This document shows positions 1 through 18,067 of a stretch of 64,000 nucleotides of DNA, in pieces. Made by a program: the position numbers and the translations under genes. The notes under the pieces were generated by a model. It ran no database searches. It was not told the origin of the DNA and saw only the letters and a program-made list of their open reading frames with translations. Where the stretch lies: contig LIHN01000017.1 of the NCBI GenBank assembly GCA_001314545.1, forward strand, positions 15,904 to 79,903, read 5' to 3'. The stretch is from Bacteroidetes bacterium HLUCCA01 (GTDB lineage Bacteria; Bacteroidota; Rhodothermia; Balneolales; HLUCCA01). The number at the start of each line of letters is the position of its first letter. Within the stretch, counting starts at the first letter, position 1.

Positions 1-2810
1 TTGTAGGCCCCGCTTCGGGGATTGTCAAATCGAATCCCTGCCCGAACCCCTTCGAAATCGTCATTGAATTCCCACCGGCCATCCGGGGTCTGGATGAGGA
101 TAACGGTATCTTCCTCCGCCTCGCCAACCTTGATAATCAGGGGCAGCGAACCGGTACCGGCGGTATAATTCACCACATAATCCGGGGCAGTTGCAACATA
201 GCCTACATGACCATAGCCACTCAGGTCATTTGAGCCACCCGCCAGAATACTCTGGGTGTGCGGATCCGGGGTAAATCCGGCACGTAAATTGACCGACCCG
301 TACTGTGGTTCCCTGGAGGGGTCTGGTCCGCTTCCGTCACCCAGGGTTCCGCTGCCGCCACCATTGGAATCATCAGCGGACAGTTCGGTGATGTACACGT
401 TGGCGCTGGCTGTAGTCTGCGAGTAGGTCCCGATCCAGATATTGTACACACCACTCTGGGGCGACTCCATTTCAATGCGAGGATTACTTCCGTCGAAGTC
501 GTCATTATACGCCCAGCTTCCATCGGGTTTGTTTATCAGCATCACCAGATCGGTGCTTGATTCCGCGCCGATATACAGCGGGAAGGTGCCCGAGGTGTAG
601 TTCAGATTGAATGTAGGAGGCACGCTTACAAATCCAAATCCGTCGAAGTTGCTCAGATCCACATTATTGTTCGAGATGCTGTACGTGCGGGTCCACGGAT
701 CGGGAGTGAAACCGGCGGTCAGATCTACCGTCCCGTTTACGGGCGATGCGTTCAGGTCGGGCTCGATCACATCCGGAGCAGTAGGAACCAGGGCAACATC
801 CACCCGGGTGCGACCTTCAAGTGCGATGGTCTGACTCACATAACCCTCATTGGTGATCCGCAGCGTTGCATTCTGATTGGGCGCTGTGATGGTGTAACCA
901 CCCTGTGCGTTGGTGGCGGCGGAAGCGGATCCGCCCTCTACCGAAACGTTCACACCGGCCAAAGCGCTGCCGGAACGTGAGTCGGTGATGGTTCCGGTGA
1001 TGGTTCGCCGTGCGGCCTCCTGCTCGCGACGGATCCGATCCTGCTCGGCACGTTGCGCGTCGCGGTCACGGATGCGCTGGCGGACGGTACTGATTTCGGT
1101 CAGAGCGGTTTCATTGTCGCTGTCGCGGTCCAGTACCGACTGATAGGTAAGCAGGGCCGCGTCAAGATCGCCGGCAGAGGCTTGCGAGGCACCCTGCTCC
1201 AGCAGGGATGCAATGCGGGCTTCACGATCGGCCTCCGATTCCTGCCGCTGTCGTTGCACCTCAGCGATGCCGTCGAGTGCATCCTGATTCTGGCTGTCGC
1301 GGTCGATGACCATCTGGAAGGTGATCATGGCCGCTTCAAGGTCGCCCGACTCCAGGTGACCATCGGCCTGCTCCAGCAGGGACAGGATGCGTGCCTGCTG
1401 TTCCGCTACGTTGTTCATGTACCGGGTAAAGCCAAAATACCCACCCCCTGCCAGTACGAACAGCACGATGGCGGCGATGATCCATTTGCCGGCGCCGCCG
1501 GATTTTGGCGCTGGTCGGGGCGTCTGCAGGCCTCCGCCTCCGCCCCCACCAGCCGCCGTAGCCGCACCGCCCGCGTCCGCGGCAGCGGCGTCCGAAGCCT
1601 TGCCTACCATGGTTTTCTTGCCGCCCGGGTCGCCGGCGCTGCTGCCTGCCGCGGCCCCTGCCCCGCCGCCTGCCGCGCCGGACCCGGAGCCACTGTCCCC
1701 AAGCGCTGCGGCAGCCGCCTCGGCCGACATCGGCCGGGTTTCCCGGCCGCCCGCACCACCGCTTCCCGGCGCCGATGCAGATCGGTCACCAGCACCACGC
1801 TCCACCGCGCCGCCGGAAGCGGAGGTGCGCGGATCCTGCTCCTCGCCCCCATACTGCGCGCCGGCCGCCGCCGCACCGATTCCCGCCCCCGCACCGCCGG
1901 CAACGGCACCCAATCCGGCCGTGTCAATAATCTGGGTCTCCCTGCCGCGCGCCGGCCGGCCCGCGCCCGCGCCCGGAGCACCCCCGGCCGCAGGCCAGGA
2001 TCCGGTACGCATAAACTGCGATGTAGCCTCCACCAGCGACTCCGGCGTCGGCCGGTCTTCCGGTCGAACCGCCATCATGGAAGCCACCAGCCTGCGGAAA
2101 GGCTCCGAAAACGTCTCCGGAAGCTCCGGCACGGCCGCGCCGGTCTGCAAGCTCACGCCGCCATTGCCCATCCAGGGCACATCGCCGGTAATCATTTCGT
2201 AAACCAGTACACCAAGGGAGAAAATGTCACCCGCCGCTACCTGCTGCGGCTTGGCCGCAAACCGCTCGGGCGGCGCATACGCCACGGTCATGGCCTTCAC
2301 CATACCCGTCTGCTTGCGCAGCGTGCTGCGCATCCGCATACTGATCCCGAAATCCATGAGCAGGTATGTATCGCCTTTGCCGATGAGGATGTTGTCCGGC
2401 TTGATATCCTGATGCAGGATTTCATGGGAATGCAGATGGGCCAGTCCGTCGGCTACCTGGCGAATCAATTCAGCCGACTGCTTTTCGTTAAACTCACCCT
2501 CCCGCTCCAGCTTGTCGTACAACGACCCGCCGTCAATCAGGGGCATAACCAGAAACGGCCGACCTTCCCAGATATCGAAGTACCGCGCTGTAAGCAGGTT
2601 GGAATGGTTCAGATTGAGCACCACGGCATACTCCCGCCGAAACTGCTTGAGCCCCTGCTCGTCCATGCCCCGCTCAGGCGCATAAATTTTGATGGCAATT
2701 TCAGCATCATCGGCCATCTGGTCGATGGCACTCCAGACTTCGGAGAAGCCTCCCATCCCGATGCGCTTCTGCAGTTTGTAGCGGTTGGCAAAGATTGTAT
2801 TCGGTTCCAT
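1..2810 (-). CDS. Membrane-anchored Hanks-type Ser/Thr protein kinase with extracytoplasmic TPR-like, CarboxypepD_reg-like and tandem beta-rich domains. The C-terminus lies beyond base 1, and the ORF is absent from the supplied track because its stop is outside the window.
   Basis: Own translation of the minus strand from ATG 2810-2808: MEPNTIFANRYKLQKRIGMGGFSEVW (Gly loop), IAIKIY (VAIK Lys), HQDIKPDNIL (catalytic loop), DFGIS, AYAPPE. A ~200-aa G/A-rich linker follows, then TM helix WIIAAIVLFVLAGGGYFGF and two TPR-like units (GDLEAAMITFQMVIDRDSQNQDAL; GDLDAALLTYQSVLDRDSDNETAL). Next come ITGTITDSRSGSALAGVNVSVEG (CarboxypepD_reg-like) and two ~115-aa repeats. The codon phase counted from 2810 matches the reading at bases 3-59 (..DFEGVRAGIRFDNPRSGAY), and I saw no stop in this frame. 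Confidence 0.85.
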   Translation of the reverse strand, partial: MEPNTIFANRYKLQKRIGMGGFSEVWSAIDQMADDAEIAIKIYAPERGMDEQGLKQFRREYAVVLNLNHSNLLTARYFDIWEGRPFLVMPLIDGGSLYDKLEREGEFNEKQSAELIRQVADGLAHLHSHEILHQDIKPDNILIGKGDTYLLMDFGISMRMRSTLRKQTGMVKAMTVAYAPPERFAAKPQQVAAGDIFSLGVLVYEMITGDVPWMGNGGVSLQTGAAVPELPETFSEPFRRLVASMMAVRPEDRPTPESLVEATSQFMRTGSWPAAGGAPGAGAGRPARGRETQIIDTAGLGAVAGGAGAGIGAAAAGAQYGGEEQDPRTSASGGAVERGAGDRSASAPGSGGAGGRETRPMSAEAAAAALGDSGSGSGAAGGGAGAAAGSSAGDPGGKKTMVGKASDAAAADAGGAATAAGGGGGGGLQTPRPAPKSGGAGKWIIAAIVLFVLAGGGYFGFTRYMNNVAEQQARILSLLEQADGHLESGDLEAAMITFQMVIDRDSQNQDALDGIAEVQRQRQESEADREARIASLLEQGASQASAGDLDAALLTYQSVLDRDSDNETALTEISTVRQRIRDRDAQRAEQDRIRREQEAARRTITGTITDSRSGSALAGVNVSVEGGSASAATNAQGGYTITAPNQNATLRITNEGYVSQTIALEGRTRVDVALVPTAPDVIEPDLNASPVNGTVDLTAGFTPDPWTRTYSISNNNVDLSNFDGFGFVSVPPTFNLNYTSGTFPLYIGAESSTDLVMLINKPDGSWAYNDDFDGSNPRIEMESPQSGVYNIWIGTYSQTTASANVYITELSADDSNGGGSGTLGDGSGPDPSREPQYGSVNLRAGFTPDPHTQSILAGGSNDLSGYGHVGYVATAPDYVVNYTAGTGSLPLIIKVGEAEEDTVILIQTPDGRWEFNDDFEGVRAGIRFDNPRSGAY

Positions 2811-2863
2811 AAACGGTAGTGATTGAATGGTTCGGACCGGCAGAAGAACCGGCCGAAGAATGG

Positions 2864-4180
2864 TTAGTCCTGATTTTGAATTTCGACTTTCAAGGTGGTG
2901 TCACCAATGGTGATGATATCGCCGGGCTGCAATTCGGCGCCGTACTCATTCACGCGCCGACCCTGCACCAGCAGTCCGTTGGTGGACGGATACCAGCCCT
3001 TTACCCCCCCTTTGTCACGATACTGCCCGTCCCGGATGGTCCACCGGAAAGTGTTGGCATCGTACTCCAGGGTGCAGTGAAAACGGGAGATGTACTGGGT
3101 GAACAGCTCGGCGATGCCGATGTCATTGCTAAAGGGGTCCTCCTCGTTGAACCAGCCCACGGTGAGAAAACGCTTGTTCAGACTTCGGGAGAGGGCGGTC
3201 AGGTTGTATTTTCGACCAATTTCCTCGCCATTTTTGACCTCCAGATACCAGGTGGAGGCGGCCGTGACCGGCACCATCGCTTCATGGCTGTTCAGCTTGA
3301 TGGAAAGCGCATCCATGACTTCGGTGATGTTTTGGTAGCGGTCTTCGGCTTTGTAGCGCAGACAATTGGAGATAACCTTCACCCAGGTTGCGTCCGGACT
3401 CATCTGCTCCAGCAGCTCCCGGTTCCAGGCTTCGTTACGCTTGCGAAGCTCATAGCCGGCCATATCGTTCATGAACGACTCAAACGAGCCGAAGGGCAGG
3501 CCCCCGCGGGTGATGAGTTCGTACATGACGGCCCCGAAGGCATACACATCGTTGGTCGGACCCATGACTTTCATAGCCTGCTTCGGATCCATCTGCTCGG
3601 GGGGCGAGTAGGTGCCCGTGGCAAAGACTTCCTTGGCGTGCCCCATGAAATTGGCCACGGTATGCCGTTTTTTAACCGAGGCGGAGATGCCGAAATCGGC
3701 CAGTTTCGGGGTTTTATGCCGGTCGAAGAGGATGTTGTCCGGCTTGATGTCGCGGTGGATGATCCCCTCGGCGTGCAGGTCGTAGAGCCCTTGCAATATC
3801 CCGGCAGCCAGCTGGCGCAGTGTCGGGGGATCCATCGGCTTGCCGATCAGGTCGGTAAGACTGCCTCCATCGCACAGTTCCAGCACCATAAACGGGTTCC
3901 CCTCGTAGGTGTCATAATCCAGGCAGCGCACAATGAAGCGGCTGTTCAGCGACGACCCGTACTCGTATTCCTGACGGAACCGCTTGGCGTATTCCAGGCG
4001 TTCGTTGGGCATGAAGGTCCACATCTTGGTGACCTTGAGCGCATAATCGGTGTGATGATCGCGCACTTTGTACACGCTGCCAAAGCCGCCCTCGCCCAGT
4101 TCTTTTTCAACCAGGTATTCGGTTTTGCGCGAGGGGATGCGGGTTCCCTGCCGGATGTCTATGGAGGATGGGGCCGACAT
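2864..4180 (-). CDS. Cytoplasmic Ser/Thr protein kinase with C-terminal FHA domain
   Basis: 438-aa ORF with LGEGGFGSVYKV, YALKV, HRDIKPDNILF, DFGIS and YSPPE. The C-terminal ~100 aa look FHA-like (FLTVGW..ISRFHCTLEYD..STNGLLVQGRRV..LQPGDIITIGDTTLKVE). Its ATG abuts the stop of the upstream gene (TAAATG at 4178-4183). Confidence 0.9.
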   Translation of the reverse strand: MSAPSSIDIRQGTRIPSRKTEYLVEKELGEGGFGSVYKVRDHHTDYALKVTKMWTFMPNERLEYAKRFRQEYEYGSSLNSRFIVRCLDYDTYEGNPFMVLELCDGGSLTDLIGKPMDPPTLRQLAAGILQGLYDLHAEGIIHRDIKPDNILFDRHKTPKLADFGISASVKKRHTVANFMGHAKEVFATGTYSPPEQMDPKQAMKVMGPTNDVYAFGAVMYELITRGGLPFGSFESFMNDMAGYELRKRNEAWNRELLEQMSPDATWVKVISNCLRYKAEDRYQNITEVMDALSIKLNSHEAMVPVTAASTWYLEVKNGEEIGRKYNLTALSRSLNKRFLTVGWFNEEDPFSNDIGIAELFTQYISRFHCTLEYDANTFRWTIRDGQYRDKGGVKGWYPSTNGLLVQGRRVNEYGAELQPGDIITIGDTTLKVEIQNQD

Positions 4181-5005
4181 TTAGGGTTCGTTGATTTCGA
4201 TGGTGTAAACTTTGTTGCCGATGATGATTCTGCTGCCCGGTGCTACCTGGGTGCGTTCTTTGGCCTGTACGAAGGTGGCACCGTTGCTGCTTTTATCCTG
4301 CACGATGAGGTTGCCGTCGAACACGGAGATGGTCAGGTGTTCTTTGGAGGAGATGGTTTCGTTGGCGGGGTCGAGGTCGGACCGGTTGAGGCTGAGCTGC
4401 ACGCCGCTGAAGGCCACTTTCCGACCGGTTTTTTCGTCGGTGAGCACGATGATGGGTTCGTCGGAGGAGGTGTCGCCTACCTGAAAATCAGAGAGCCGGC
4501 GGGTTTTGGCGTCGCTGGGTTTGGATTTCGGGGTTGGGGGCGGGGTCGCTGAACCTACGTGGACCCCGGTGCCCTGATCTGCTGCCGATCCCATGCCCGG
4601 ATTTGCCGCGTTGCCGGCTCCTGCACCTGCGGCTGGACCGCTGGCACCCTGCACACCGGCCGGACTGCCCGTGAACCCGCAATTCGGGCACGGAGCGTTG
4701 ACGGAAACGGCTTGTCGGAGCGGATAGTAGCCGCATTTATCGCACCGCTGGACGCTGGCGGATGCTGCGCCGGGCGAGGGTGCTCCAGCCGGCGGCGGAG
4801 GCGGGGCGTTGCCGGTATCCCATGACGGGGCTTCGGAGACCCGGCCCACCATGGTTTTTTTGCCACCGTCGTGCTCCGGCGGAATGTGCATCCCGCCATT
4901 GGCTGGCGGTTGTGGGGCGGCACTGCCGGAGGAGAGTTTGGTTCCGCATTTGACGCAGATTTTGGCGTCAGGGCTGTTCTGGTATCCGCATTCGAAACAT
5001 CGCAT
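4181..5005 (-). CDS. Double zinc-ribbon / FHA-domain protein
   Basis: 274 aa. The N-terminus carries CxxC..CxxC (MRCFECGYQNSPDAKICVKCG), and a second ribbon reads CDKCGYY..CPNCGF. A P/A/G-rich linker leads to a C-terminal FHA-like fold (LSLNRSDLD..ISSKEHLTISVFDGNLIVQDKSSNGATFV..GSRIIIGNKVYTIE). Confidence 0.85.
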   Translation of the reverse strand: MRCFECGYQNSPDAKICVKCGTKLSSGSAAPQPPANGGMHIPPEHDGGKKTMVGRVSEAPSWDTGNAPPPPPAGAPSPGAASASVQRCDKCGYYPLRQAVSVNAPCPNCGFTGSPAGVQGASGPAAGAGAGNAANPGMGSAADQGTGVHVGSATPPPTPKSKPSDAKTRRLSDFQVGDTSSDEPIIVLTDEKTGRKVAFSGVQLSLNRSDLDPANETISSKEHLTISVFDGNLIVQDKSSNGATFVQAKERTQVAPGSRIIIGNKVYTIEINEP

Positions 5006-5020
5006 GGCTGTGGGTGTTGA

Positions 5021-6664
5021 TTAAATTTGGGGTTTGGGTACGGGGTTTTCTGCTGTTTGGCTGGTGGAATCCGGAGCCGGATTTTTTTCGGGTTCCGCTT
5101 CCCCGCTGTCCGGTTTGCTGCTACCCTCAGACTGATCGTCGGTGGGTATACGGAAGGAGGGTTCACTGGGTGTGGGTTCAACGGTTTCGGCTTCAGCCGG
5201 GGCACTTTCTTCAGCGTCGCTGCCGTTTTGTGAGGATTGCCCATCGCCGGTTGTCTCTTCAGGCGGAGCGACTTCGCCCTCCCGACCTGCACCGGAACCT
5301 GAATCGCTGCCCGACCAATCAGCCTCTCCGCCGGTTCCGGTTGGTGATTCGCTGTCGGTTCCCGGACCTATAGTGGCACCATCGTCAACAGCGGAGTCTA
5401 TCGGGGTTTCCGGGTTATCACCGACGGTTTCGCTGTTTTGTACTTCTTCCGTCGGGTCGGTGGTCACATCGTCTTCATTGGTTTGAAACAGCGTGAAGTA
5501 GGCAACGGTCCCGGCAACCAGAAGCAGTACGGCAATAATAAGCCATAGCCTGCTGCCCGACCCGCCCGAGGTGGTATTTTCAGCGGCGTATCCATCGTCA
5601 ATGCCGTAGCGGTCGGAAGCGCCGCCGCCGGGGTTGTCCACTCTGTCACCGGAACCTCTTCCGGATTGGCCGACCGAATCCGGCAGTCCCGGATTTTTAA
5701 CAGTGGTTGCACCAGCGCTGCGCACCGTACGTACCGTTTCACCGTTAGTACCGGCAGCACCGGTTGCGGCACCCGGTCGGTCATCGGCCTCAAGTACATC
5801 CAGCAGCAGGCAGGTGATGTTGTCTTCTCCGCCGGCCCGATTGGCATGCTCTACCAGCTCGGCACAGGTATCAGCGGTACCTTTGTTTTCGGATAACACC
5901 TGCTCGATTCGCTGATCGGGTAGCATGCCGTTGAGTCCGTCGCTGCACACCAGCACACGATCGCCGCTGTAGAGGGTAGTGCTTCGTGAGGAGGGCTTCG
6001 GAGGTTGTTCAGGCGAGCCGAGGCTTTGCAGAATCAGGTTGCTTTCCGGGTGGGTGCGGGCTTCCTCGGCCGACAGCTTTCCTTTTTTGACGAGGTCCCA
6101 GACCATGGAGTGGTCGTCAGTGAAGGGCAACAGCGGTTCTCCCGGGGTGTACACGTAGCAGCGACTGTCGCCGGACCAGGCGGTGTGCAGCTGATTACCG
6201 ATGACCCAGGCGATAACCAGCGTTGTACCCATCCCGGCCGTGTCCAGGTTGGCGTGCTGATGCGCTACAATGCGTTCATGGGCCTTTATTATGCAGTCCC
6301 GGAGAAAAGCTTCCCGTTTTGCGGCAGAGCCCGGTACATCGGTGAGCTGCTGAAATGCTTCCTGTACGTATTCCTGTGCCAGATGAGAGGCAACCTCGCC
6401 CGCATTGGTTCCGCCCATACCATCGGCTACTACCAGCAAGGCACCGGCCTCCCCGGCCGGCACGATGTCGCTTCTGCGGAAGCCCCAGGCGTTGGCGGCG
6501 ATATCACGGGCGACCACAAAGTTATCCTCATTGTGGGAGCGCTGCCGACCAACATCGGTGATGCCGAACAGGGTGAAGGTTTTTATCATAAGCTGCGTGG
6601 GATTCGAATACGTTAGGTTTACAGGTGGCCGGGCTGCAGTGCGTTTACCAGGGTGTTCAGACAC
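5021..6664 (-). CDS. PP2C-family Ser/Thr phosphatase with TM anchor and long acidic S/T/P/E-rich tail
   Basis: 547 aa with GITDVGRQRSHNEDNF, VVADGMGGTNAGEVAS, VCSDGL and GGEDNITCLLLDV (PP2C metal-binding motifs). TM helix LWLIIAVLLLVAGTVAYFTLF is followed by ~160 aa of acidic low complexity. An alternative start is ATG at 6589 (MIKTFTLFGITD). Confidence 0.88.
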   Translation of the reverse strand: MSEHPGKRTAARPPVNLTYSNPTQLMIKTFTLFGITDVGRQRSHNEDNFVVARDIAANAWGFRRSDIVPAGEAGALLVVADGMGGTNAGEVASHLAQEYVQEAFQQLTDVPGSAAKREAFLRDCIIKAHERIVAHQHANLDTAGMGTTLVIAWVIGNQLHTAWSGDSRCYVYTPGEPLLPFTDDHSMVWDLVKKGKLSAEEARTHPESNLILQSLGSPEQPPKPSSRSTTLYSGDRVLVCSDGLNGMLPDQRIEQVLSENKGTADTCAELVEHANRAGGEDNITCLLLDVLEADDRPGAATGAAGTNGETVRTVRSAGATTVKNPGLPDSVGQSGRGSGDRVDNPGGGASDRYGIDDGYAAENTTSGGSGSRLWLIIAVLLLVAGTVAYFTLFQTNEDDVTTDPTEEVQNSETVGDNPETPIDSAVDDGATIGPGTDSESPTGTGGEADWSGSDSGSGAGREGEVAPPEETTGDGQSSQNGSDAEESAPAEAETVEPTPSEPSFRIPTDDQSEGSSKPDSGEAEPEKNPAPDSTSQTAENPVPKPQI

Positions 6665-6738
6665 AGCGACCGGAAAGGGCGGCTGCGCGATGGTTCAATG
6701 CGCAGCCCTGCACCTGATATGCATCAACGCCACGGGAA

Positions 6739-8241
6739 TCAGAAGTTACCGATTGGGGTGATGTAGTCAATTTTGGCATAGGCTCCGGTAACAATGCCGA
6801 TGACGGTAGCCTCGCCGTTGTGAAGCGTGAACACAGGTCCGCCCGAGTTTCCGCCGTCACTTCCGGCTTCCGCGGCCTGAATTACACCGTCTTCAATGCC
6901 AGACAACGCCACCTTCGCGGTGGAGAAGTAGGGTTCGAGGTTGCCGGAGCTTCGAAGTCGTTCACCGTAGCTGTAACCAAGCACAAACAAATCGGTTCCG
7001 TTGCGCAGTTCGCGGGAGAGGGGCTTGTTGTAGGCCAGACCGCCACTGAGCGGGGTTTGCATGTAGGCCCAGTCGGCACCGGAGAAGAAGCGCGTTTCCC
7101 GTACTGCACCCTGATTGCCGCTGCCCAGGTCAATGCGGTGCATGGGATCCTGACTGAAATCGGCCTCCAGTTCCTTGTTGGTGAAGGAAAAGCGGATGGC
7201 CCCATCGTACGATTCTGCTGTGAAGTGGAAGGTGGCACTTCCGCCGCTATGCTCAATAATATTGGCCTCGGCGAAGGGGGAATCTTCTTCCAGATCGTAC
7301 AGGTCAATGCAGTGCCGGGCTGTTACAAAAATACCATCCTGCATTAAAAAGCCGGTACACATGAGCTGTCCGCCCAGGTCGTACGACTCCTCGCTGCCGC
7401 CGAAGCTCATGTCAAGCCGATGCAGGCGGAGGGCCAGAACGTACCCTTTCAGCGGGTCAATGATATCGGCAAAGTTGACGTTGCCGCCGGACGCCAGCAA
7501 TCGTTCGCTTTGTTCGCGCAGTTCATCGATGGTTGATTCCATCTGCGCCCGTTCCTGCTCGCGGCGTGCGCGTTCCCGTTCGAAGGCCTGTTGCGTGGTG
7601 GCGAAGCGGGAGGAAAGGTCTACATTTCGGGCATTGAGTGCGGCCAGGGAGTCGGCCTGCGACTGGGTGATTTCGGCTTGCAGGGCAATCAGGTTTTCCT
7701 GCTCCACGAGGGTTTGCTGCATGTTGTAAATCAGAAATCCGGCGACGCCGATGGAGAGGAGCAGTACCATGCTTATGGCGATGACGGCCGTGCGGTAGGG
7801 TCGGATCGACTGCTGCATAACCAGGTTCATCCGGCTGGTGAACCCCATTTTGGCTGTACCCTGTTTGGTGGTATTGTACCGGAGTCGGGGACCTTCCAGC
7901 GAGAGCTGGATTTCATCGCCGTTGTTCAGGAAATAGCGCTCGTTAACCGGTCGGCCGTTGACCAGGGTCGGGTTCGACGTTGATAGGTTCAGGATGTAGG
8001 TTTCGTTGCCTTTTCGTTCAATAGCCGCGTGCTTGCGGCTTACGGTAGGGGTATCATCGCCGAACCGGATTCCGCAGCTGCGGTCGCGACCCAGCTCCAC
8101 GTAGGGAACGACGATGGTCTCAAAGGCTCCTTGCTGCTTGCCGTTGGCCGGCGAGAGGTATTCAAGGGTAAAGGTGGGTGTGTTGACGCCGCCCAGTACT
8201 TTCATGCCGGCGGTCAGGGATCGAGTAGCTTTATTTGCCAT
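6739..8241 (-). CDS. FHA domain - TM - coiled coil - trypsin-like (S1/Trypsin_2-type) serine protease fusion
   Basis: 500 aa. The N-terminal FHA reads ELGRDRSCGIRFGDDTPTVSRKHAAIERKGNETYILNLSTSNPTLVNGRPV..GDEIQL. TM helix TAVIAISMVLLLSIGVAGFLIY is followed by a ~90-aa heptad-like segment. Protease motifs are FVTARHCI (His), GADWAYM (Asp candidate) and GGNSGGPVF (Ser). Confidence 0.8.
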   Translation of the reverse strand: MANKATRSLTAGMKVLGGVNTPTFTLEYLSPANGKQQGAFETIVVPYVELGRDRSCGIRFGDDTPTVSRKHAAIERKGNETYILNLSTSNPTLVNGRPVNERYFLNNGDEIQLSLEGPRLRYNTTKQGTAKMGFTSRMNLVMQQSIRPYRTAVIAISMVLLLSIGVAGFLIYNMQQTLVEQENLIALQAEITQSQADSLAALNARNVDLSSRFATTQQAFERERARREQERAQMESTIDELREQSERLLASGGNVNFADIIDPLKGYVLALRLHRLDMSFGGSEESYDLGGQLMCTGFLMQDGIFVTARHCIDLYDLEEDSPFAEANIIEHSGGSATFHFTAESYDGAIRFSFTNKELEADFSQDPMHRIDLGSGNQGAVRETRFFSGADWAYMQTPLSGGLAYNKPLSRELRNGTDLFVLGYSYGERLRSSGNLEPYFSTAKVALSGIEDGVIQAAEAGSDGGNSGGPVFTLHNGEATVIGIVTGAYAKIDYITPIGNF

Positions 8242-8274
8242 AATTTTCGTGTTCGTGTTACGGGAGATTGGAAG

Positions 8275-9141
8275 TTATTGAAACGTCACGTCGCCTTCAT
8301 CATTGACATTAAATTGCAGGAGGACGGTTTTTTCGCCAACGCGGCGCATGGTAGTGGGTTCTATGGGCACGCTGCCATCACGGAAGAAAATGCGCCCTTT
8401 GGCGGTCGATGAACTGGTGCCGGAGGGCATGCTGTACAGGTTGGCTTCCACCAGATAGTTGCCGGGCTCGGCCTCGCGGATTTCCCAGACTTCGGCGCCG
8501 GGACCGTTAACCACGTCCTCGCTGAGTTCGCCGGGTCGACCGGGATGGGTGGCTTCGGCGTAGAAAAACTCCGCCCCGGCGGGATCGGTCACATGAAGGT
8601 CTACATCCACCCCCTGCTCGGGCCACTGAATGTAGATAACCAGGAAGGTCTTGGCCAGCTGCTCGCGGGCGGCCTGAAGTTCTTCCTCAAGTTGGGCCAT
8701 TCCGGCGTTCTCCTCGTTGAGCTGCTGCTGGGCATCTTCCAGCTCACGCGAAGCCTGCTGCAGTTCTTCCCTGAGCGCATCGGCTTCATCCTGTGCGGCC
8801 TGCACCTGTTCCTGGAGCTGTTCGTTTTCCTCGCGGGTTTCCCGCAATTCGGTAGTCACTTCCTGTACCTGCTGCTGCAGATCGTTGATGCGGTCCTCCA
8901 TCGCCTGAAACTGCGCCATCAGCTCTTCATACATGGCTTCCGGAACCGATTGCCGGTATTCATCCAGGATGGTACTGATTTCCGTGAGATCTTCATTCAG
9001 CTGGTCTACCTGCTCCAGGATGTCCGACTGCTCGGCCGTGAGTTTGGGCACAATCACATACAAAATGATGACCGCACCGAGCGCGCCGGACAGCAAATCC
9101 AGGAAACTTGCCCCAAATACATTTATTTCTTTGCGGGCCAT
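8275..9141 (-). CDS. ExbD/TolR-like TM protein whose periplasmic part is a long E/Q-rich coiled coil plus a DUF2135-like beta-sandwich
   Basis: 288 aa. The N-terminus KEINVFGASFLDLLSGALGAVIILYVIV resembles the TolR/ExbD segment (SEINIVPLLDVLLVLLLIF), including the membrane Asp (D15). About 130 aa of coiled coil follow (..QQQVQEVTTELRETREENEQLQEQVQAAQDEADALREELQQASRELEDAQQQL..). The C-terminus reads VDVDLHVTDPAGAEFFY..GELSEDVVNGPGAEVWEI..PGNYLVEANLYS, which recalls YfaP/DUF2135. Its start overlaps the stop of the MotA-like gene (TGATG, 9139-9143). Confidence 0.6.
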   Translation of the reverse strand: MARKEINVFGASFLDLLSGALGAVIILYVIVPKLTAEQSDILEQVDQLNEDLTEISTILDEYRQSVPEAMYEELMAQFQAMEDRINDLQQQVQEVTTELRETREENEQLQEQVQAAQDEADALREELQQASRELEDAQQQLNEENAGMAQLEEELQAAREQLAKTFLVIYIQWPEQGVDVDLHVTDPAGAEFFYAEATHPGRPGELSEDVVNGPGAEVWEIREAEPGNYLVEANLYSMPSGTSSSTAKGRIFFRDGSVPIEPTTMRRVGEKTVLLQFNVNDEGDVTFQ

Positions 9142-9908
9142 CAGGTGACGTCTATTTTGTTGATAAGGTTTTCAACCACAAACTCTTCGATATCCTGATG
9201 CAGAACCTCGGTTTTTTCCTGCAGGGCATGGAAGACATACATCAGGATAAGACTCAGGACCAGGGCCAGCAGTGTGGTGTCAAAAGCGACGCCCAGGGCG
9301 GCGGTTATTTCTTCGATGGGGGCGGTGGCTGCAATACTCAGCGACTGAGATATCCCCAGGATGGTGCCTACAAATCCGATGGAAGGGATGGCCCAGAGCA
9401 TATAGCGTATTCCGGATTGCACCGATTCGGCTTTTTCCCGGTTAATTCGACTTTGGGACTGGACGATGGCGAAGGCCGACTCCGCTGAGTGGTTGGAACG
9501 GAAGCGGGTACAGGCCTTTTTTATAATTGCAAGCAGATAATAGGCCCCTTGACGGTCTTCCTGACGCTTTTTGCGGAGGTAGTCGGCCACTTGAATACGG
9601 ATTTTGTTGACTTCATCGGCGCCCAGAACGGCATGTTCCTCGCCGGGAAGCAATTCAACCGACAGGTATTTTCGCTCGAAGTCGGCCCAGAACAGTGCGT
9701 GCCGTACCTCGATCAGTCCCCAGAAAAAAGCGAAGAAGGTCAGAAACTGGATGTATCCGCCACCGGCAATATTGCCACCCAGCAGTATGGCGATGCGCTG
9801 CAAGGCATCGGCTTCTGCATAATGATACAGTGCAGATACCAGAAGCTGCACGATAACAGCAGCACCTATGGCAATCAGTGCACGCGTGGGTTTACCCATC
9901 GAATTCAT
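9141..9908 (-). CDS. MotA/TolQ/ExbB proton-channel family protein
   Basis: 255 aa. The C-terminal signature is IRYMLWAIPSIGFVGTILGISQSLS..ITAALGVAFDTTLLALVLSLILMYVFHALQ, typical of PF01618-type channels. There is an N-terminal TM helix plus a cytoplasmic loop. Confidence 0.8.
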   Translation of the reverse strand: MNSMGKPTRALIAIGAAVIVQLLVSALYHYAEADALQRIAILLGGNIAGGGYIQFLTFFAFFWGLIEVRHALFWADFERKYLSVELLPGEEHAVLGADEVNKIRIQVADYLRKKRQEDRQGAYYLLAIIKKACTRFRSNHSAESAFAIVQSQSRINREKAESVQSGIRYMLWAIPSIGFVGTILGISQSLSIAATAPIEEITAALGVAFDTTLLALVLSLILMYVFHALQEKTEVLHQDIEEFVVENLINKIDVT

Positions 9909-10207
9909 ATACGACCCTGTCTGACTGTGAAGGTTAATACTAGCATTGCTCCCTGTGCTTCTGTCCCGGTAGCTTCTCGGCCAGGCAGGACTGAATCCCC
10001 TGTATGCCTGTGTCAGGTATGTATGCCTGCGTCACGTAGGTAAAATGACGGGTTCACATAGTGACATCAATCCGCGTAGCTCTGATAGAACAAAACAGAA
10101 GATTGGATAAGGTAAAAACTTATACATCATGCACAAATTCGTGATCCCAATGCGCTTATAAATACTCATAAGTAAGTATAGTAATCGGTGTTAATATAGT
10201 CAGTATT

Positions 10208-10399
10208 TCATTGGGCGGGGATTCGGCGGGTGGATTCTGGGTTTGGATGGTGGGTATCGGTCCGGTATATCGACTGAAGTTCCTGTACGGATTTATGCAG
10301 ATCGTTCGGTGTGAGCTCTTCCAGGATTAATTTGGCCAGAAGGGTGCGTTCGGAGGTTTTCAGGGATAGCAGCGCCTGCTGCAGTTCGTAACGGTTCAT
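10208..10399 (-). CDS. Small hypothetical helical protein (63 aa), coding status uncertain
   Basis: ORF only, with no recognisable motif. It lies ~300 nt upstream of the seven-gene operon and is co-directional with it. Confidence 0.25.
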   Translation of the reverse strand: MNRYELQQALLSLKTSERTLLAKLILEELTPNDLHKSVQELQSIYRTDTHHPNPESTRRIPAQ

Positions 10400-10444
10400 G
10401 ACATTTCAGCTAGTGTTTAGTGTTCTACGCTTCCCCCGAAGTGT

Positions 10445-10630
10445 GGCCTGTGAGCTGATGCGGTGTTGCGGCGTTCGGCCTGACCGCCGTTTAGGCGGTG
10501 CGGTTTCTGGCCTGTCAGCTGGTGTGATGTTGTGGCGTTCAGCCTGTCATCTGGTGTGCCGGTACGGTATGTGGTCCGCCCGCTGTTGCGATGTTGCGGC
10601 GTTCGGCCCGCCCGCTGGTGAGGCAGTGCC
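10445..10630. repeat. Degenerate ~32-nt tandem repeat, about six units
   Basis: Contiguous units: ggcctgtgagctgatgcggtgttgcggcgttc / ggcctgaccgccgtttaggcggtgcggtttct / ggcctgtcagctggtgtgatgttgtggcgttca / gcctgtcatctggtgtgcc.. / gcccgctgttgcgatgttgcggcgttc / ggcccgcccgctggtgaggcagtgcc. The core gttgcggcgttcggcc recurs. Confidence 0.7.
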
Positions 10631-10749
10631 TTATAACTATAGAGTGCGAGAAAGGCTGATTATTTCATGATTTGCACAAATTTCACAACGATTTGGTCGC
10701 CATGCCGACGGAAAACCGTACCTTTTACTAAGAAACTTGTGCAAAACTT

Positions 10750-15646: not shown

Positions 15647-16696
15647 ATGAATAACAAACGTGTTGAACTGGATTTTCACCCTGAACTGGAGCTCCTCCGC
15701 AACAGGACGGAGACCCTTCGCGGCTTGCCCGGTTTTGAAGAAAAGCTGGATGATTCCGGGCTGTACCCGCTCACGCCTACCGGACTCGACATTCTTCAGG
15801 TTAACGTAGGGTATATGTGTAACATGACCTGCAAGCACTGCCATGTGGATGCCGGTCCGCACCGCAAGGAAATTATGCCCCGGGAAACCCTGCAGCACTG
15901 TCTGAATGCCTACGATGCCGGTGGATTCAAAACCGTTGATATCACAGGCGGTGCCCCCGAGATGAATCCGGACTTCCGATGGTTTGTGGACGAACTCCAT
16001 CAGCGCGGAGCCCATATCATCGTCAGGTCCAATTTAACCATACTCGTCACAACCCCGCGTTATCGTGAGTTGCCTGCTTTTTTTGCAGAACGAGGTGTTG
16101 AGGTAACCTGTTCCCTGCCATTTTACAACAAAATCACCACTGATCGACAACGTGGCGAGGGTACTTACGACCGTTCCGTGGAGGCTTTGAAAGCACTCAA
16201 TGCACTGGGGTACGGGAAAGGCAACGCCAGACTGGAACTGAATCTGGTCTACAATCCGGCTGGAGCCTTCCTGCCCCTGCCTCAACAGGAACTGGAAGCC
16301 GATTTCAAGCGCCAGCTCCTTGAAAAACATGACATCGTGTTCAACAACCTCTTCACCATCACCAACTTGCCTATCAGCCGGTACCTGGACTACCTGCTTC
16401 GATCGGACAACCTTGATGACTACATGGTCACATTGGTCAATGCATACAATCCGATGGCCGCCGACCGGGTTATGTGCAGGAACACCATTTCCGTGGGTTG
16501 GGATGGTCGGGTGTACGACTGCGATTTCAACCAGATGCTGCTCATGCCGGTTGATGTGACGGAATCATCCTCTGATTACACCCACATCAAAGACTTCGAC
16601 GCAGAAATCCTGCTGAAACGTCGTATCCGCACCGGGCAGCATTGCTATGGTTGCACAGCCGGTGCCGGCAGCAGCTGTGGCGGAAGTCTGGCCTGA
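15647..16696 (+). CDS. arsS: Radical SAM / Cys-rich C-terminal domain protein, ArsS family
   Basis: 349 aa with the CxxxCxxC cluster (GYMCNMTCKHCHV) and the C-terminal Cys-rich tail CYGCTAGAGSSCGGSL, characteristic of the TIGR04167/ArsS family. This is the Cys form, not the selenocysteine form. Confidence 0.8.
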   Translation: MNNKRVELDFHPELELLRNRTETLRGLPGFEEKLDDSGLYPLTPTGLDILQVNVGYMCNMTCKHCHVDAGPHRKEIMPRETLQHCLNAYDAGGFKTVDITGGAPEMNPDFRWFVDELHQRGAHIIVRSNLTILVTTPRYRELPAFFAERGVEVTCSLPFYNKITTDRQRGEGTYDRSVEALKALNALGYGKGNARLELNLVYNPAGAFLPLPQQELEADFKRQLLEKHDIVFNNLFTITNLPISRYLDYLLRSDNLDDYMVTLVNAYNPMAADRVMCRNTISVGWDGRVYDCDFNQMLLMPVDVTESSSDYTHIKDFDAEILLKRRIRTGQHCYGCTAGAGSSCGGSLA

Positions 16697-16714
16697 ATCT
16701 CGTATGTTTTTGTC

Positions 16715-17344
16715 ATGGCCCCACCCGAAAAAACCTCAAGAGGACTCATTGTTTTCCTGCGAAATCCGGTCCCGGGACAGGTAAAAACTCGTCTCGCTGC
16801 CGGAATAGGTCCTGTTGCTGCGCTGCATATTTACCAAAAGCTAGTTGACCACACCCTCCAGGCAGCGGCAGATAGCGGCGCTCAGATGTATCTGTTCTAT
16901 GATCAGAGACTACCCGAAACATCCCGGCGTATCCCCGATGCGCAATACCATCTCCAGGAAGGAATGGATCTCGGAGCACGCATGTATAACGCATTCAACG
17001 TTGCACTGAACGATGGCTGTGATCAATTGGTCATTATTGGTAGTGATTGCCCGGGCCTCACCGTCGACCTGATTCAAAGGGCATTTGTATGCCTCAGGGA
17101 GTATGATTCGGTACTTGGTCCGGCCGCCGACGGAGGCTACTATCTGCTGGGGGTTACCTCCCCGCATCCATCCCTGTTTACCGGAAAAAACTGGAGTACG
17201 GAAACCGTGCTGGAAGACACGCTGGTCGCTATCCGATCGCTTAACTGGTCGGTCACCACCTTGCCAACCCTTACCGATATTGATACCGTTGACGACCTTC
17301 GGCAAATCCGCCCCGACTGGCTTATTGAGACCGGAGGTGCCTGA
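16715..17344 (+). CDS. DUF2064 (TIGR04282-type) glycosyltransferase-like protein
   Basis: 209 aa with LIVFLRNPVPGQVKTRLA, DLGARMYNAF, IIGSDCPGL and GPAADGGYYLLG. Confidence 0.75.
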   Translation: MAPPEKTSRGLIVFLRNPVPGQVKTRLAAGIGPVAALHIYQKLVDHTLQAAADSGAQMYLFYDQRLPETSRRIPDAQYHLQEGMDLGARMYNAFNVALNDGCDQLVIIGSDCPGLTVDLIQRAFVCLREYDSVLGPAADGGYYLLGVTSPHPSLFTGKNWSTETVLEDTLVAIRSLNWSVTTLPTLTDIDTVDDLRQIRPDWLIETGGA

Positions 17345-17347
17345 CCG

Positions 17348-18067
17348 ATGCATACATCGCCCTGCTTTTCCATCGTTATGCCGGTTCTGAACGAAGCCGC
17401 GGGCATCGCGCTTCAACTGGGCCACCTGCTTTCCTTGCCCGGCCTGGCAGAAAACGCCGAAATCATTGTAGTGGACGGAGGGAGTACCGATTCAACCTGC
17501 AGTATTGCAGCAACATTTCCCGTCAGGCTCATACATTCGCAGCCCGGTCGCGCCCGACAGATGAATGCCGGAGCCCGTCAGGCACGAAGTCGACACCTGT
17601 TTTTCATCCATGCCGACTCCATTCCGCCCCGGACTTTTGTTCAGGATGTACGGGAGCTGATTCGCCGGGATGCGGTAGGTGGTTGTTATCGCCTCGCCTT
17701 TGATGATCCGCATCCGTTGCTGCGACTCTACGCCTGGTTTACACGCTTCGATGTACAAGCCTTCCGGTACGGCGACCAGGGGTTGTATGTACCCGCCGCC
17801 ATATTTCATAGGTTGGGCGGTTTCAATGAGGACTATCTGGTCATGGAAGACAATGACATGGTGCTCCGACTGCGCCGGCACAGCCGGTCGAGGTTTCAAA
17901 TACTACCCGCACCCATGATCACCTCGGCCCGTCGCTACCATGATAACGGCATCCTGCGGCTGCAGCTCATCTTTGCGGCCATTTACCTCCTCCACAACGC
18001 CGGCATTCCCCATGCGGAGCTTAAACGATTCTACAAGGACTGGATCACCGGAAGACCGGTAGTTTAA
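17348..18067 (+). CDS. GT2-family glycosyltransferase (TIGR04283-type partner of DUF2064)
   Basis: 239 aa. FSIVMPVLNEA at the N-terminus, DGGSTD and FIHADS (DxD-like) fit GT-A. It starts 4 nt after the DUF2064 gene. Confidence 0.75.
   Translation: MHTSPCFSIVMPVLNEAAGIALQLGHLLSLPGLAENAEIIVVDGGSTDSTCSIAATFPVRLIHSQPGRARQMNAGARQARSRHLFFIHADSIPPRTFVQDVRELIRRDAVGGCYRLAFDDPHPLLRLYAWFTRFDVQAFRYGDQGLYVPAAIFHRLGGFNEDYLVMEDNDMVLRLRRHSRSRFQILPAPMITSARRYHDNGILRLQLIFAAIYLLHNAGIPHAELKRFYKDWITGRPVV

Follow-up and report, generated by a model that had tools for sequence, protein, structure and literature searches.

A conserved operon predicted to couple an ExbB/TolQ-type motor and a membrane-tethered serine protease with its own threonine-phosphorylation switch

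Gene content and layout

The window, a stretch of 64,000 nucleotides from Bacteroidetes bacterium HLUCCA01, opens with seven ORFs, all on the minus strand and together spanning positions 1–9908. The first two genes in the direction of transcription share a 1-nt stop/start overlap at 9139–9143, and the remaining gaps between successive ORFs are 33, 74, 15, 0, and 53 nt, with the start codon of the kinase-FHA gene directly following the stop of the zinc-ribbon-FHA gene. These positions and junctions are identical to those of the initial annotation, which had described the spacing as operon-like. The 74-nt gap holds only with GTG at 6664 as the start of the PP2C gene; ATG at 6589 (MIKTF) appears more likely because the PP2C domain begins at around residue 35, and the gap upstream of the gene would then be 149 nt. 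Co-directional, tightly spaced, and with start and stop codons that overlap or abut, the seven genes have every appearance of a real operon. The domains first assigned to the kinases, PP2C, FHA, protease, and MotA_ExbB proteins were recovered with Pfam and NCBIfam profiles, whereas the ExbD and DUF2135 labels were not.

The A subunit (255 aa; 9141–9908) is a proton-channel protein of the MotA/ExbB/TolQ family that matches MotA_ExbB (PF01618) at 6.4e-11 and 42.5 bits (cutoff 22.9) and contains several transmembrane (TM) segments. Its AF2 model (pLDDT 88) is predicted to have an ExbB/TolQ/MotA-like fold: the top 50 Foldseek matches in the PDB are all ExbB, TolQ, MotA, PomA, or ZorA chains, each the A subunit of a 5:2 motor, the best being Acinetobacter baumannii TolQ (8vlw_B; TM-score 0.62/0.71). 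The family is highly conserved, with a mean column identity of 58% and the motifs IPSIGFVGT and LGVAFDTTL. As the protein scores far too low to pass the TolQ, ExbB, and PomA cutoffs of NCBIfam, its ion use and stoichiometry are extrapolated.

The adjacent gene (8275–9141) encodes a 288-aa protein, B, with an 8-residue cytoplasmic N terminus, a single TM helix containing Asp15, a helical stalk of ∼130 residues, and a C-terminal β-sandwich. In the AF2 model (pLDDT 81), helices comprise residues 9–30, 36–62, and 68–162, with the β-sandwich at 167–287. Asp15 is invariant in all 19 aligned homologues. Profile scores do not support the ExbD and DUF2135 labels for this protein: it has no match to Pfam ExbD at E ≤ 0.1, and its DUF2135 score of 12.1 bits is below the cutoff of 22. 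Foldseek returned no PDB match below E = 1e-3, and no relationship to ExbD, TolR, or MotB was detectable in sequence or fold. The TM helix with its invariant Asp, together with adjacency to the A gene, makes the protein a candidate B subunit. Some homologues carry the name "YfaP family" in their source records, and vWA domains occur next to a PP2C in relatives of B.

The third gene (6739–8241) encodes a 500-aa protein in which an FHA domain (Pfam, 1.5e-14) is followed by one strong TM segment (residues 153–171), a helical stalk of ∼125 aa, and a trypsin-like serine protease (Trypsin, 1.6e-9; Trypsin_2, 1.9e-7). Across 46 sequences of the FHA-protease, the catalytic triad His310/Asp390/Ser466 and the phosphothreonine-binding residues Arg52, His71, and Asn95 of the FHA domain are invariant, with Ser68 and Arg69 kept in 45. 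The juxtamembrane motif LxxQQALRPYK is also conserved; the TM helix itself shows little conservation and lacks a polar motif like that of TonB. The stalks of B and the protease fall in the same length range (100–138 residues), with no co-variation between them (n = 13, rho = −0.16).

The other four genes encode phosphorylation functions. The PP2C Ser/Thr phosphatase (5021–6664; 547 aa from the GTG) scores 8e-63 and 212 bits with NCBIfam Stp1_PP2C_phos, under the cutoff of 230, and 53.4 bits with Pfam PP2C_2 (cutoff 24); a TM segment (375–393) separates the domain from an acidic tail rich in Ser, Pro, Glu, and Gly. It is followed by a 274-aa adaptor (4181–5005), in which no TM segment was found, consisting of a double zinc ribbon (Zn_Ribbon_1, 7.5e-7; DZR, 3.3e-6), a low-complexity linker, and an FHA domain scoring 18.1 bits against a cutoff of 20.7. 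The next product (2864–4180; 438 aa) is a cytosolic Hanks-type Ser/Thr kinase (Pkinase, 1.1e-44) with motifs ALKV, HRDIKPDN, and DFG and a C-terminal FHA domain (4.5e-10).

The last gene (1–2810) encodes a receptor-type Hanks kinase, with 936 aa in the window; ∼24 codons are cut off by its edge, and the gene ends ∼72 nt beyond base 1. The kinase domain (Pkinase, 2.4e-46; motifs AIKIY, the non-RD HQDIKPDN, and DFG) is followed by a Gly/Ala-rich linker, a TM segment (444–462), TPR-like helices with weak TPR scores, a CarboxypepD_reg domain (CarbopepD_reg_2, 1.2e-12), and two repeated β-domains. B, the PP2C protein, and this kinase each contain one strong TM segment. The core of the receptor kinase is constant, whereas its extracytoplasmic domains vary by lineage and include an FGE-sulfatase domain among the variants, as expected of an input domain.

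The DNA beyond base 1 contains only a TPR fragment and a γ-glutamyltranspeptidase gene, and within the window the operon is neighboured by ordinary genes of metabolism. Neither there nor just beyond base 1 is it accompanied by T6SS, TonB-receptor, flagellar, gliding, Zorya ZorCD, or RodA/PbpA genes. The initial annotation had allowed that a known machine might begin just past that edge, and neither a T6SS nor a cell-division machine lies there.

Conservation of the gene set across genomes

With the B protein as query, 80 independent genome loci were recovered. The MotA-like A gene adjoins B in 59 of them, the FHA-protease is also present in 45, and a PP2C and a kinase are added in 39; every gene class is carried by 34, and most related loci include the zinc-ribbon-FHA gene. 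The lineages with the gene set comprise Balneolales, Bacteroidales, Chitinophagales, Saprospiraceae, Flavobacteriales, and Cytophagales, so the co-localization expected among relatives at the outset is seen in many Bacteroidota and Balneolales genomes. The gene order is not fixed: two different orders occur. In 32 of the 80 loci the protease and PP2C genes are separated by an eighth gene, absent here, for a secreted protein of ∼280 aa. The genes flanking the set are not conserved. Judged from these comparisons, the gene set is under selection to stay together.

The motor pair also recurs with other proteases and other signalling genes. Its context in Polaribacter is kinase, B, A, and Trypsin_2. 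In Saprospiraceae the pair is accompanied by CHAT and Peptidase_C1 as well as an ECF sigma factor, and in Spirochaetales by a C1 peptidase together with a protein resembling trypsin. The protease is simply missing in three Saprospiraceae loci, and in Desulfamplus its position is taken by a protein that has vWA and FHA domains. Among 185,579 species genomes, only ∼160 stretches match the B motif. Most occurrences of the system are in Bacteroidota, and protein identity drops with taxonomic distance. No homologue was found on phages, and plasmids gave a single distant match (30% identity).

Relationship to known systems

Like ExbB-ExbD-TonB and TolQ-TolR-TolA, the operon encodes an A protein with the ExbB/TolQ fold and the Pfam MotA_ExbB domain, a neighbouring single-pass protein with a membrane Asp, and, as TonB and TolA are encoded alongside their motors, another single-pass protein whose long stalk in the periplasm ends in a globular head. 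The differences are that A falls well short of the equivalog cutoffs for TolQ and ExbB, B has a long helical stalk and β-sandwich rather than an ExbD Pfam domain, and the third protein adds a cytoplasmic FHA domain and ends in a serine protease, not a TonB_C or TolA domain. In addition, the operon has no linked genes for a TonB-dependent receptor or Pal/TolB, and it includes kinases and a phosphatase of its own.

In Myxococcus xanthus GltG, an FHA domain at the N terminus is followed by a TM segment and a periplasmic region with a C-terminal head, a layout shared by the FHA-protease; GltG binds the TolQ-like AglR directly (PMC3169522). GltG provides a precedent for the FHA-protease as an output partner. 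Unlike in AglRQS-Glt, the head is a trypsin-like protease instead of TonB_C, the other Glt genes are absent, and the system is also found in lineages not known to glide, gut Bacteroidales among them.

The PpkA/PppA/Fha1 pathway of the Pseudomonas aeruginosa H1-T6SS and the actinobacterial FhaA-FhaB-PstP-RodA-PbpA-PknA-PknB operon each encode a Hanks-type receptor kinase together with a PP2C and FHA readers, which control a membrane machine post-translationally. The same components are co-encoded here, but the genes under control would be the MotA/ExbB-type pair and the protease, and T6SS or RodA/PbpA genes are neither adjacent nor recurrent in the related loci.

Zorya ZorAB likewise employs a MotA/ExbB-family motor outside motility or import. 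The A protein has a weak PADLOC match to ZorA (2.5e-5), and ZorA (8vvn_D) is among its Foldseek matches; however, A is only 255 aa and has no long ZorA tail, B has no peptidoglycan-binding domain, and no ZorC/ZorD-type effector genes are present. Lastly, the TerY-P triad combines vWA, PP2C, and STK-Zn-ribbon proteins (PMC11090510), and Sulfolobus has ArnA (Zn-finger-FHA) and ArnB (vWA) with the ArnC/D kinases. These systems resemble the operon in the recurrence of a Ser/Thr kinase, PP2C-type phosphatase, Zn-ribbon, and FHA and vWA proteins, and differ in that neither is known to include a MotA/ExbB motor or membrane-tethered protease. The vWA domains in relatives of B and the vWA-FHA protein of Desulfamplus add to the likeness; the window itself has no vWA domain.

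A literature search found no description of the system, in agreement with the initial annotation, which named no characterized system of this composition. The conserved operon, whose predicted products couple a motor of the ExbB/TolQ type and a serine protease tethered to the membrane with a threonine-phosphorylation switch of their own, therefore appears to be undescribed.

Proposed mechanism and alternatives

The preferred reading, given a probability of about one-half, is that the gene products form one envelope machine, in which a Ton/Tol/Agl-like motor powered by the proton motive force has the FHA-protease as its output and the kinases, PP2C, and FHA proteins as its control. A and B would constitute an inner-membrane motor of the Ton/Tol/Mot/Agl type, driven by protons, with five A subunits around two B subunits and the Asp in the single TM helix of B as proton acceptor. 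B, which has no peptidoglycan anchor, would reach into the periplasm with its stalk, tipped by the β-sandwich. The FHA-protease, similar to B in topology and stalk length, may be the motor's output partner, in the role that TonB, TolA, or the FHA-bearing GltG has for its own motor, with the protease as the head that is moved, positioned, or activated in the periplasm.

Engagement would be governed from the cytoplasmic side via threonine phosphorylation. The receptor kinase may use its lineage-specific sensor domains to respond to a cue in the periplasm and, with the kinase-FHA protein, make phosphothreonine sites; the three FHA domains, in the protease, the second kinase, and the zinc-ribbon adaptor, would read these sites so that the complex is assembled or switched on, and the membrane PP2C would reset it. 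The binding partners and the direction of signalling may be as in this scheme, and in the simplest case the role would be signal-gated proteolysis in the periplasm, serving to maintain the envelope or to respond to stress. Such an energized, phosphorylation-gated envelope module is consistent with all of the findings from the sequences. The recurrence of the A-B pair with proteases in other settings and the variable sensor over a constant kinase core speak for it. Counting against it are the undetectable kinship of B with ExbD, TolR, or MotB, the poorly conserved TM helix of the FHA-protease, the stalk lengths that vary independently, the loci in which the protease is missing or replaced, and the low TolQ, ExbB, and PomA scores of A.

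It is unlikely, on balance, that the operon is a conflict system of the Zorya or TerY-P type, in which the motor senses envelope perturbation, the kinases, PP2C, and FHA proteins act as a switch, and the protease (or vWA protein) is an effector causing growth arrest or cell death. In its favour are the weak ZorA match of A and the matches of the kinases to the PADLOC PD-T4-6 and mad6 models, although these are generic kinase matches. The vWA domains beside PP2C in B relatives recall the TerY-P triad, and TerY-P-like modules are reported to act in defence (PMC11090510). The swapping of kinase sensor domains between lineages, FGE-sulfatase included, the recombination of the motor pair with a variety of proteases (CHAT and C1, for example), and the patchy distribution suggested by the ∼160 B-motif stretches point the same way. 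Against this, the window has no nuclease, NTPase, or ZorC/ZorD-like genes, nor do the gene families that recur across the 80 loci include any, and the metabolic neighbours, the lack of phage homologues, and the lone distant plasmid match also argue otherwise. The core is strongly conserved and its identity tracks taxonomic distance, unlike fast-evolving defence genes, and the predicted periplasmic location of the protease head would be unusual for an abortive-infection effector.

Equally doubtful is that the operon regulates or energizes a machine encoded elsewhere, such as type IX secretion or gliding, outer-membrane or cell-wall biogenesis, or cell division. Its writers, eraser, and readers match the composition of the T6SS and RodA/PbpA-linked sets, and TolQ-like motors can serve unlinked envelope machines, as Tol-Pal and Agl-Glt illustrate (PMC3169522). 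The concentration of the system in Bacteroidota is also in keeping with an unlinked machine. No partner genes, however, are linked to it within the window or past base 1, nor do any recur among the 80 loci, and the genes behave as a cassette complete in itself, with its own protease retained. Gut Bacteroidales are not known for gliding motility, whereas some other host lineages are, and the system is present in both.

That the MotA/ExbB pair merely lies beside an ordinary kinase/phosphatase operon is highly improbable and contradicted by the synteny, given the overlapping or abutting start and stop codons and the presence of the same gene classes together in 34 of the 80 loci, across several taxonomic orders, in two gene orders, and with changing flanks.

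Organisation of the cluster and its surroundings

The initial annotation had placed in 1–9908 an operon joining a phosphorylation relay to a proton motor and a protease, and its seven open reading frames, all on the minus strand, were confirmed together with their coordinates. The first gene encodes a 255-residue MotA/ExbB-like protein (A, 9141–9908) and is followed by those for its candidate partner (B, 288 residues, 8275–9141), an FHA-protease (500 residues), a PP2C phosphatase (547 residues), a Zn-ribbon-FHA adaptor (ZnFHA, 274 residues), a kinase-FHA protein (KinFHA, 438 residues), and a receptor kinase (Kin), which is cut by base 1. The stop codon of A and the start codon of B overlap by 1 base and the later gaps are 33, 74, 15, 0, and 53 nt, where the value of 74 nt holds if the GTG at 6664 is the PP2C start; the ATG at 6589 is the likelier one, as the PP2C domain of this ORF does not start until about residue 35. 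The Kin gene ends ∼72 nt past base 1, at ...KIWVGSYGSDFVQTTLHITEYSSQ, as read from L001, a metagenomic contig with identical proteins that extends the region.

Upstream of the A gene lies an 841-nt non-coding stretch and then ordinary metabolic genes, encoding a DAO-type oxidoreductase, a fatty-acid hydroxylase, a pyridine-nucleotide-disulphide oxidoreductase, a CMD protein, a radical-SAM/DUF3641 protein, a glycosyltransferase, and an amidohydrolase. Beyond base 1, L001 carries only a TPR fragment and a gamma-glutamyltranspeptidase gene; as this contig is of low coverage and low quality, with frameshifts, the downstream gene content is only roughly known. Within the window flank and beyond base 1 on L001 there were no T6SS, TonB-receptor, flagellar, gliding, Zorya, or RodA/PbpA genes, in agreement with the earlier view that the operon is linked to no known machine. 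Rfam and tRNA scans of the operon region and the downstream DNA gave no RNA genes.

Several elements were observed in the intergenic DNA. A tandem pair of 19-nt units (TGTATGCCTGYGTCASGTA) at 10001–10038 precedes the start codon of A by ∼95–130 nt and is a possible operator or promoter of the operon. An intergenic ORF of 63 codons (MNRYELQQALLSLKTSERTLLAKLILEEL...) at 10210–10398, on the same (minus) strand as the operon, has no Pfam match; its N terminus may resemble antitoxin-type "addiction module" peptides. Three to four imperfect direct repeats are found in non-coding DNA at 10442–10629, upstream of the operon (60-nt reference copy, 60–78% identity, 64/32-nt spacing), with no Rfam family match, and a 14-nt inverted repeat (TTTGCACAAATTTC / GAAACTTGTGCAAA; 93% complementary, 47 nt apart) at 10671–10745 sits just upstream of the divergent oxidoreductase gene starting at 10750. 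Further along, on the plus strand at 15647–18067, radical-SAM/DUF3641, DUF2064, and family-2 glycosyltransferase genes stand in a row, unrelated to the operon.

Properties of the encoded proteins

A hydropathy scan bore out the proposal of five membrane proteins, with one strong transmembrane (TM) helix each in B, the FHA-protease, PP2C, and Kin and several TM segments in A. Residues 128–241 of A match the Pfam family MotA_ExbB (PF01618) with 42.5 bits (cutoff 22.9, E = 6.4e-11), placing the protein in this family. When the AlphaFold2 (AF2) model of A (pLDDT 88) was compared with the PDB by Foldseek, the best 50 matches were all ExbB, TolQ, MotA, PomA, or ZorA, i.e. A subunits of 5:2 motors, at probabilities of 0.96–1.00 with every E-value above 1e-3; the best TM-score was 0.62/0.71, to TolQ of A. 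baumannii. The model thus gives A an ExbB/TolQ/MotA-like helical fold. A profile search of the PDB reached PomA at just E = 0.003. The identification of A as an orthologue of PomA, TolQ, or ExbB was rejected, with scores against the NCBIfam equivalogs of 20 (cutoff 341), 16.7 (221), and 15.5 bits (135), respectively, all far under cutoff. The family has a mean column identity of 58% in 22 sequences, reaching as far as Bacteriovoracaceae, and carries the motifs IPSIGFVGT and LGVAFDTTL within the last two helices.

ExbD, TolR, and MotB are characterised by a membrane aspartate in a single TM helix, close to its cytoplasmic end, and by a gene that immediately follows one for an ExbB-like protein. 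B has the layout of such a subunit: eight cytoplasmic residues precede a single N-terminal TM helix (13–31 by hydropathy scan), in which Asp15 is invariant in all 19 sequences, and the gene adjoins that of A in 59 of 80 related loci. The AF2 model of B (pLDDT 81) continues with helices 36–62 and 68–162 and a nine-strand β-sandwich (167–287). The label "ExbD-like" given to B in the initial annotation was not borne out by Pfam, with no ExbD (PF02472) or OmpA-like match at E ≤ 0.1. A PDB profile search with the whole B family returned only coiled-coil noise, and a search with the first 40 residues nothing relevant, with no ExbD, TolR, or MotB chain in either; B is therefore a candidate homologue of these proteins. 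In a Foldseek comparison of the B model with the PDB no match passed E = 1e-3; those returned were generic β-sandwiches of Ig-like or MmpS-like type. The DUF2135 label for the C-terminal domain also fell away, at 12.1 bits versus a cutoff of 22 (PF09906); the best-scoring relative reached 17.7 bits, where the aligned part is a motif of only ∼15 residues, and "YfaP family" is a source-given name for some homologues. The B family is sizeable, its profile recovering 264 clusters (50% identity) at E ≤ 1e-30 among 1.84 billion representatives.

For the remaining five products, profile searches agreed with the earlier assignments of FHA and Trypsin/Trypsin_2 in the 500-residue protein, PP2C in the 547-residue protein, and Pkinase and FHA in KinFHA. 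The zinc ribbons of the 274-residue protein were likewise recovered, with its FHA domain only weakly matched, as were the Pkinase and CarboxypepD_reg domains of Kin, with only a weak TPR match. The FHA-protease scores 38.4 bits against Trypsin (cutoff 20.6) and 32.3 bits against Trypsin_2 (cutoff 27.6) and is predicted from its sequence to be a chymotrypsin-fold (S1-type) serine protease. Its triad of His310, Asp390, and Ser466 is invariant in 46 sequences (the window protein and 45 from related loci), as are the FHA residues Arg52, His71, and Asn95, with Ser68 and Arg69 present in 45 of the 46. A cytoplasmic juxtamembrane motif, LxxQQALRPYK, is almost invariant, whereas the TM helix is not. 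The stalks of B and the FHA-protease are both 100–138 residues in length, which fits with heads working at the same periplasmic height; the two lengths are, however, uncorrelated (n = 13), a result that speaks neither for nor against a pairing of the two proteins.

PP2C is a member of the Pfam family PP2C_2 (53.4 bits, cutoff 24), contains the usual RxxNED, DGMGG, and GGEDN motifs, and scores 212 bits against the NCBIfam Stp1 equivalog, just under the cutoff of 230. Both kinases belong to the Hanks-type Ser/Thr kinases (Pkinase, 153 and 159 bits). KinFHA has the Lys, HRD, and DFG motifs and Kin is a non-RD kinase, as its catalytic loop reads HQD. None of the system-specific proteins has a dedicated NCBIfam model.

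Recurrence and variation of the gene set

The B-family motif, scanned against a collection with a single genome for each species, yielded 160 confirmed loci, of which 80 were taken for analysis; the seven window proteins were mapped onto every ORF of these loci by phmmer, and the classes were counted per locus. Besides the 59 loci in which A adjoins B, A, B, and the FHA-protease occur together in 45, these three with PP2C and a kinase in 39, and every class, including KinFHA and the FHA-only adaptor, in 34; many of the incomplete loci lie on short contigs that break off within the cluster. Co-localisation in related genomes, on which the original proposal had been staked beforehand, is thus found: the gene set recurs and the flanking genes differ between loci. 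Carriers are found in Balneolales and across many Bacteroidota, and genomes assembled from gut samples are among them.

Two gene orders were observed. That of the window (A-B-protease-PP2C-ZnFHA-KinFHA-Kin) is found in Balneolaceae, Rhodohalobacter, Algoriphagus, and several Chitinophagales and Sphingobacteriales, and the other (ZnFHA-KinFHA-B-A-protease-x-PP2C-Kin) in Bacteroidales, Saprospiraceae (Phaeodactylibacter), and others. In 32 of the 80 loci (13166–13968 in L010, 11610–12434 in L056, 13227–14111 in L017, and 29 others) the eighth gene, x (family u0), separates the FHA-protease gene from the PP2C gene; its product is a secreted protein of ∼280 residues that has a signal peptide and matches no Pfam family. 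Neither the window nor its closest relatives carry this gene. The extracytoplasmic part of Kin varies by lineage, with TPR, CarboxypepD_reg, and two β domains in the window, an FGE-sulfatase domain in Desulfamplus, and WG, MORN, or ankyrin repeats in other lineages. In Desulfamplus, moreover, a vWA- and FHA-bearing protein takes the place of the FHA-protease.

The A–B pair also occurs in other settings. In the Saprospiraceae loci L052, L061, L078, and L079 a B-A pair was observed in a different conserved cluster, with a TPR-CHAT protease, a pentapeptide-repeat protein, a papain-like peptidase, an ECF sigma factor, a putative anti-sigma protein, an outer-membrane β-barrel, and a double Zn-ribbon protein. 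The Polaribacter context reads kinase, B, A, Trypsin_2, and that in a spirochaete includes a C1 peptidase and a trypsin-like protein. Across these varied contexts, the recurrent companions of the pair are a protease and a transmembrane signalling layer.

Halobacteriovorax and other Bacteriovoracaceae have a sister A family (248–252 residues, ∼45% identity) whose partner is a vWA-domain protein in place of B; the A gene is always followed by that of the vWA protein (∼290–300 residues), with no kinases nearby (L084, 8001–9622; L086, 8001–9667). Separately, Chitinophagales and Sphingobacteriales (L037–L066; e.g. L038, 8306–11203, and L044, 8227–11407) encode proteins with a B-like N-terminal TM(Asp) motif, a long coiled coil, and a vWA domain, whose genes are divergent from a PP2C gene and have no MotA-like gene within 10 kb.

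Relation to known systems and proposed function

The known roles of ExbB/TolQ/MotA-type motors are few, namely flagellar rotation, import through TonB, envelope maintenance by Tol-Pal, gliding or secretion (Agl-Glt and GldLM), and Zorya defence. TonB_C was found in none of the seven products and the neighbours are metabolic, unlike a Ton system. Nor is the cluster a Zorya system, in which ZorA has a long C-terminal tail, ZorB a peptidoglycan-binding domain, and ZorC/D or ZorE serve as effectors: A has just 255 residues, and the window and the recurrent families of the loci hold no effector-type genes. PADLOC returned only generic kinase and coiled-coil matches and weak, partial ZorA matches (21.5 bits), and identification as a listed defence system was rejected. 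The parts of the phospho-module are the same as those of PpkA/PppA/Fha1 (T6SS) and the actinobacterial FhaAB-PstP-PknAB. Kinase, PP2C, and FHA genes are shared with the T6SS threonine-phosphorylation pathway, but T6SS genes were found neither in the flank or beyond base 1 nor as recurrent families in the 80 loci, and no rodA/pbpA lies between phosphatase and kinases as in the actinobacterial FhaAB-PstP-RodA-PbpA-PknAB arrangement. The Zn-ribbon/FHA/vWA theme recalls ArnA/ArnB of Sulfolobus and the TerY-P triad (PMC11090510). The latter combines a TerY-like vWA protein, a PP2C, and a Ser/Thr kinase with a fused Zn-ribbon, and the cluster is not such a triad: relatives of B bearing a vWA domain exist elsewhere, but the window has no vWA domain and its Zn-ribbon belongs to an FHA protein distinct from the kinases.

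The closest precedent for the proposed output protein, by analogy, is GltG of M. xanthus, which has an N-terminal FHA domain, a TM helix, and a C-terminal TonB domain and binds the TolQ-like AglR (PMC3169522). The FHA-protease, whose gene is linked to A in 45 of the 80 loci, has an FHA domain, a TM helix, and a stalk, with a protease in place of TonB_C, and may be a GltG-like output protein. Full-text literature searches turned up no account of this combination of genes. On non-flagellar MotAB homologues, a 2025 survey goes no further than "generic ion transporters", in part of unknown function, and is silent on FHA or vWA partners (PMC12505986); a 2020 paper on conflict systems mentions neither ExbB nor DUF2135 (PMC7159879). 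We classify the cluster as a new ExbB/TolQ-type motor system with an unprecedented partner set, which is not categorically new, since each of its modules is related to known ones.

The reading with the best support is a phospho-gated motor of the Ton/Tol/Agl kind with the FHA-protease as output, in which gene content, domains, fold, and linkage are the starting point from which we infer every further step. A and B would form an A5B2 proton motor (the stoichiometry being that suggested by its relatives), the FHA-TM-stalk-protease would be its output partner, and threonine phosphorylation would gate the motor. A more far-reaching form of this reading, to which we assign a probability of roughly one in four, is that the cluster represents a fourth functional class of ExbB/TolQ-type motor, in which a serine protease tethered to the membrane would be moved, positioned, or mechanically activated by proton flow in the periplasm, where there is no ATP. 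Two kinases, one PP2C, and three FHA readers would make up a built-in phosphothreonine switch that licenses the whole device. On this view, different lineages would have coupled the motor pair, as a portable cassette, to different proteases (trypsin-like, papain-like, or CHAT) and to different signalling layers, either Hanks kinases or a pair of ECF sigma and anti-sigma factors.

A less likely alternative is that the cluster serves in defence or conflict: the sensor domains of Kin are swapped between lineages, some relatives bear vWA domains, the motor cassette is recombined with other partners, and the distribution appears patchy. The core, however, is strongly conserved, the neighbouring genes are ordinary, nuclease or NTPase effectors are absent, and the searched phage and plasmid collections gave no homologue apart from one distant match on a Rhizobium plasmid. 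The cluster may also, though again less probably, regulate an unlinked machine. Chance adjacency of the motor pair and the kinase operon is excluded by the synteny.

With the phospho-gated motor–protease as the preferred reading, the cluster would add a widely conserved motor system with a built-in periplasmic protease and a complete Ser/Thr phosphorylation switch. If the motor does drive or gate proteolysis, it would show regulated delivery of energy to a protease in a compartment lacking ATP and give Hanks-kinase signalling in Bacteroidota a concrete target. Candidate experimental hosts are the cultured species with FHA-protease homologues, namely Rhodohalobacter barkolensis, Catalinimonas alkaloidigena, Pontibacter aydingkolensis, Odoribacter laneus, Phaeodactylibacter xiamenensis, and Thermaurantimonas aggregans. 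Some genomes carry two or three paralogous FHA-proteases, in tandem in at least one case; the homologues P0435, P0474, and P0476 lie on the same 538-kb contig and P0468 and P0477 have adjacent locus tags.
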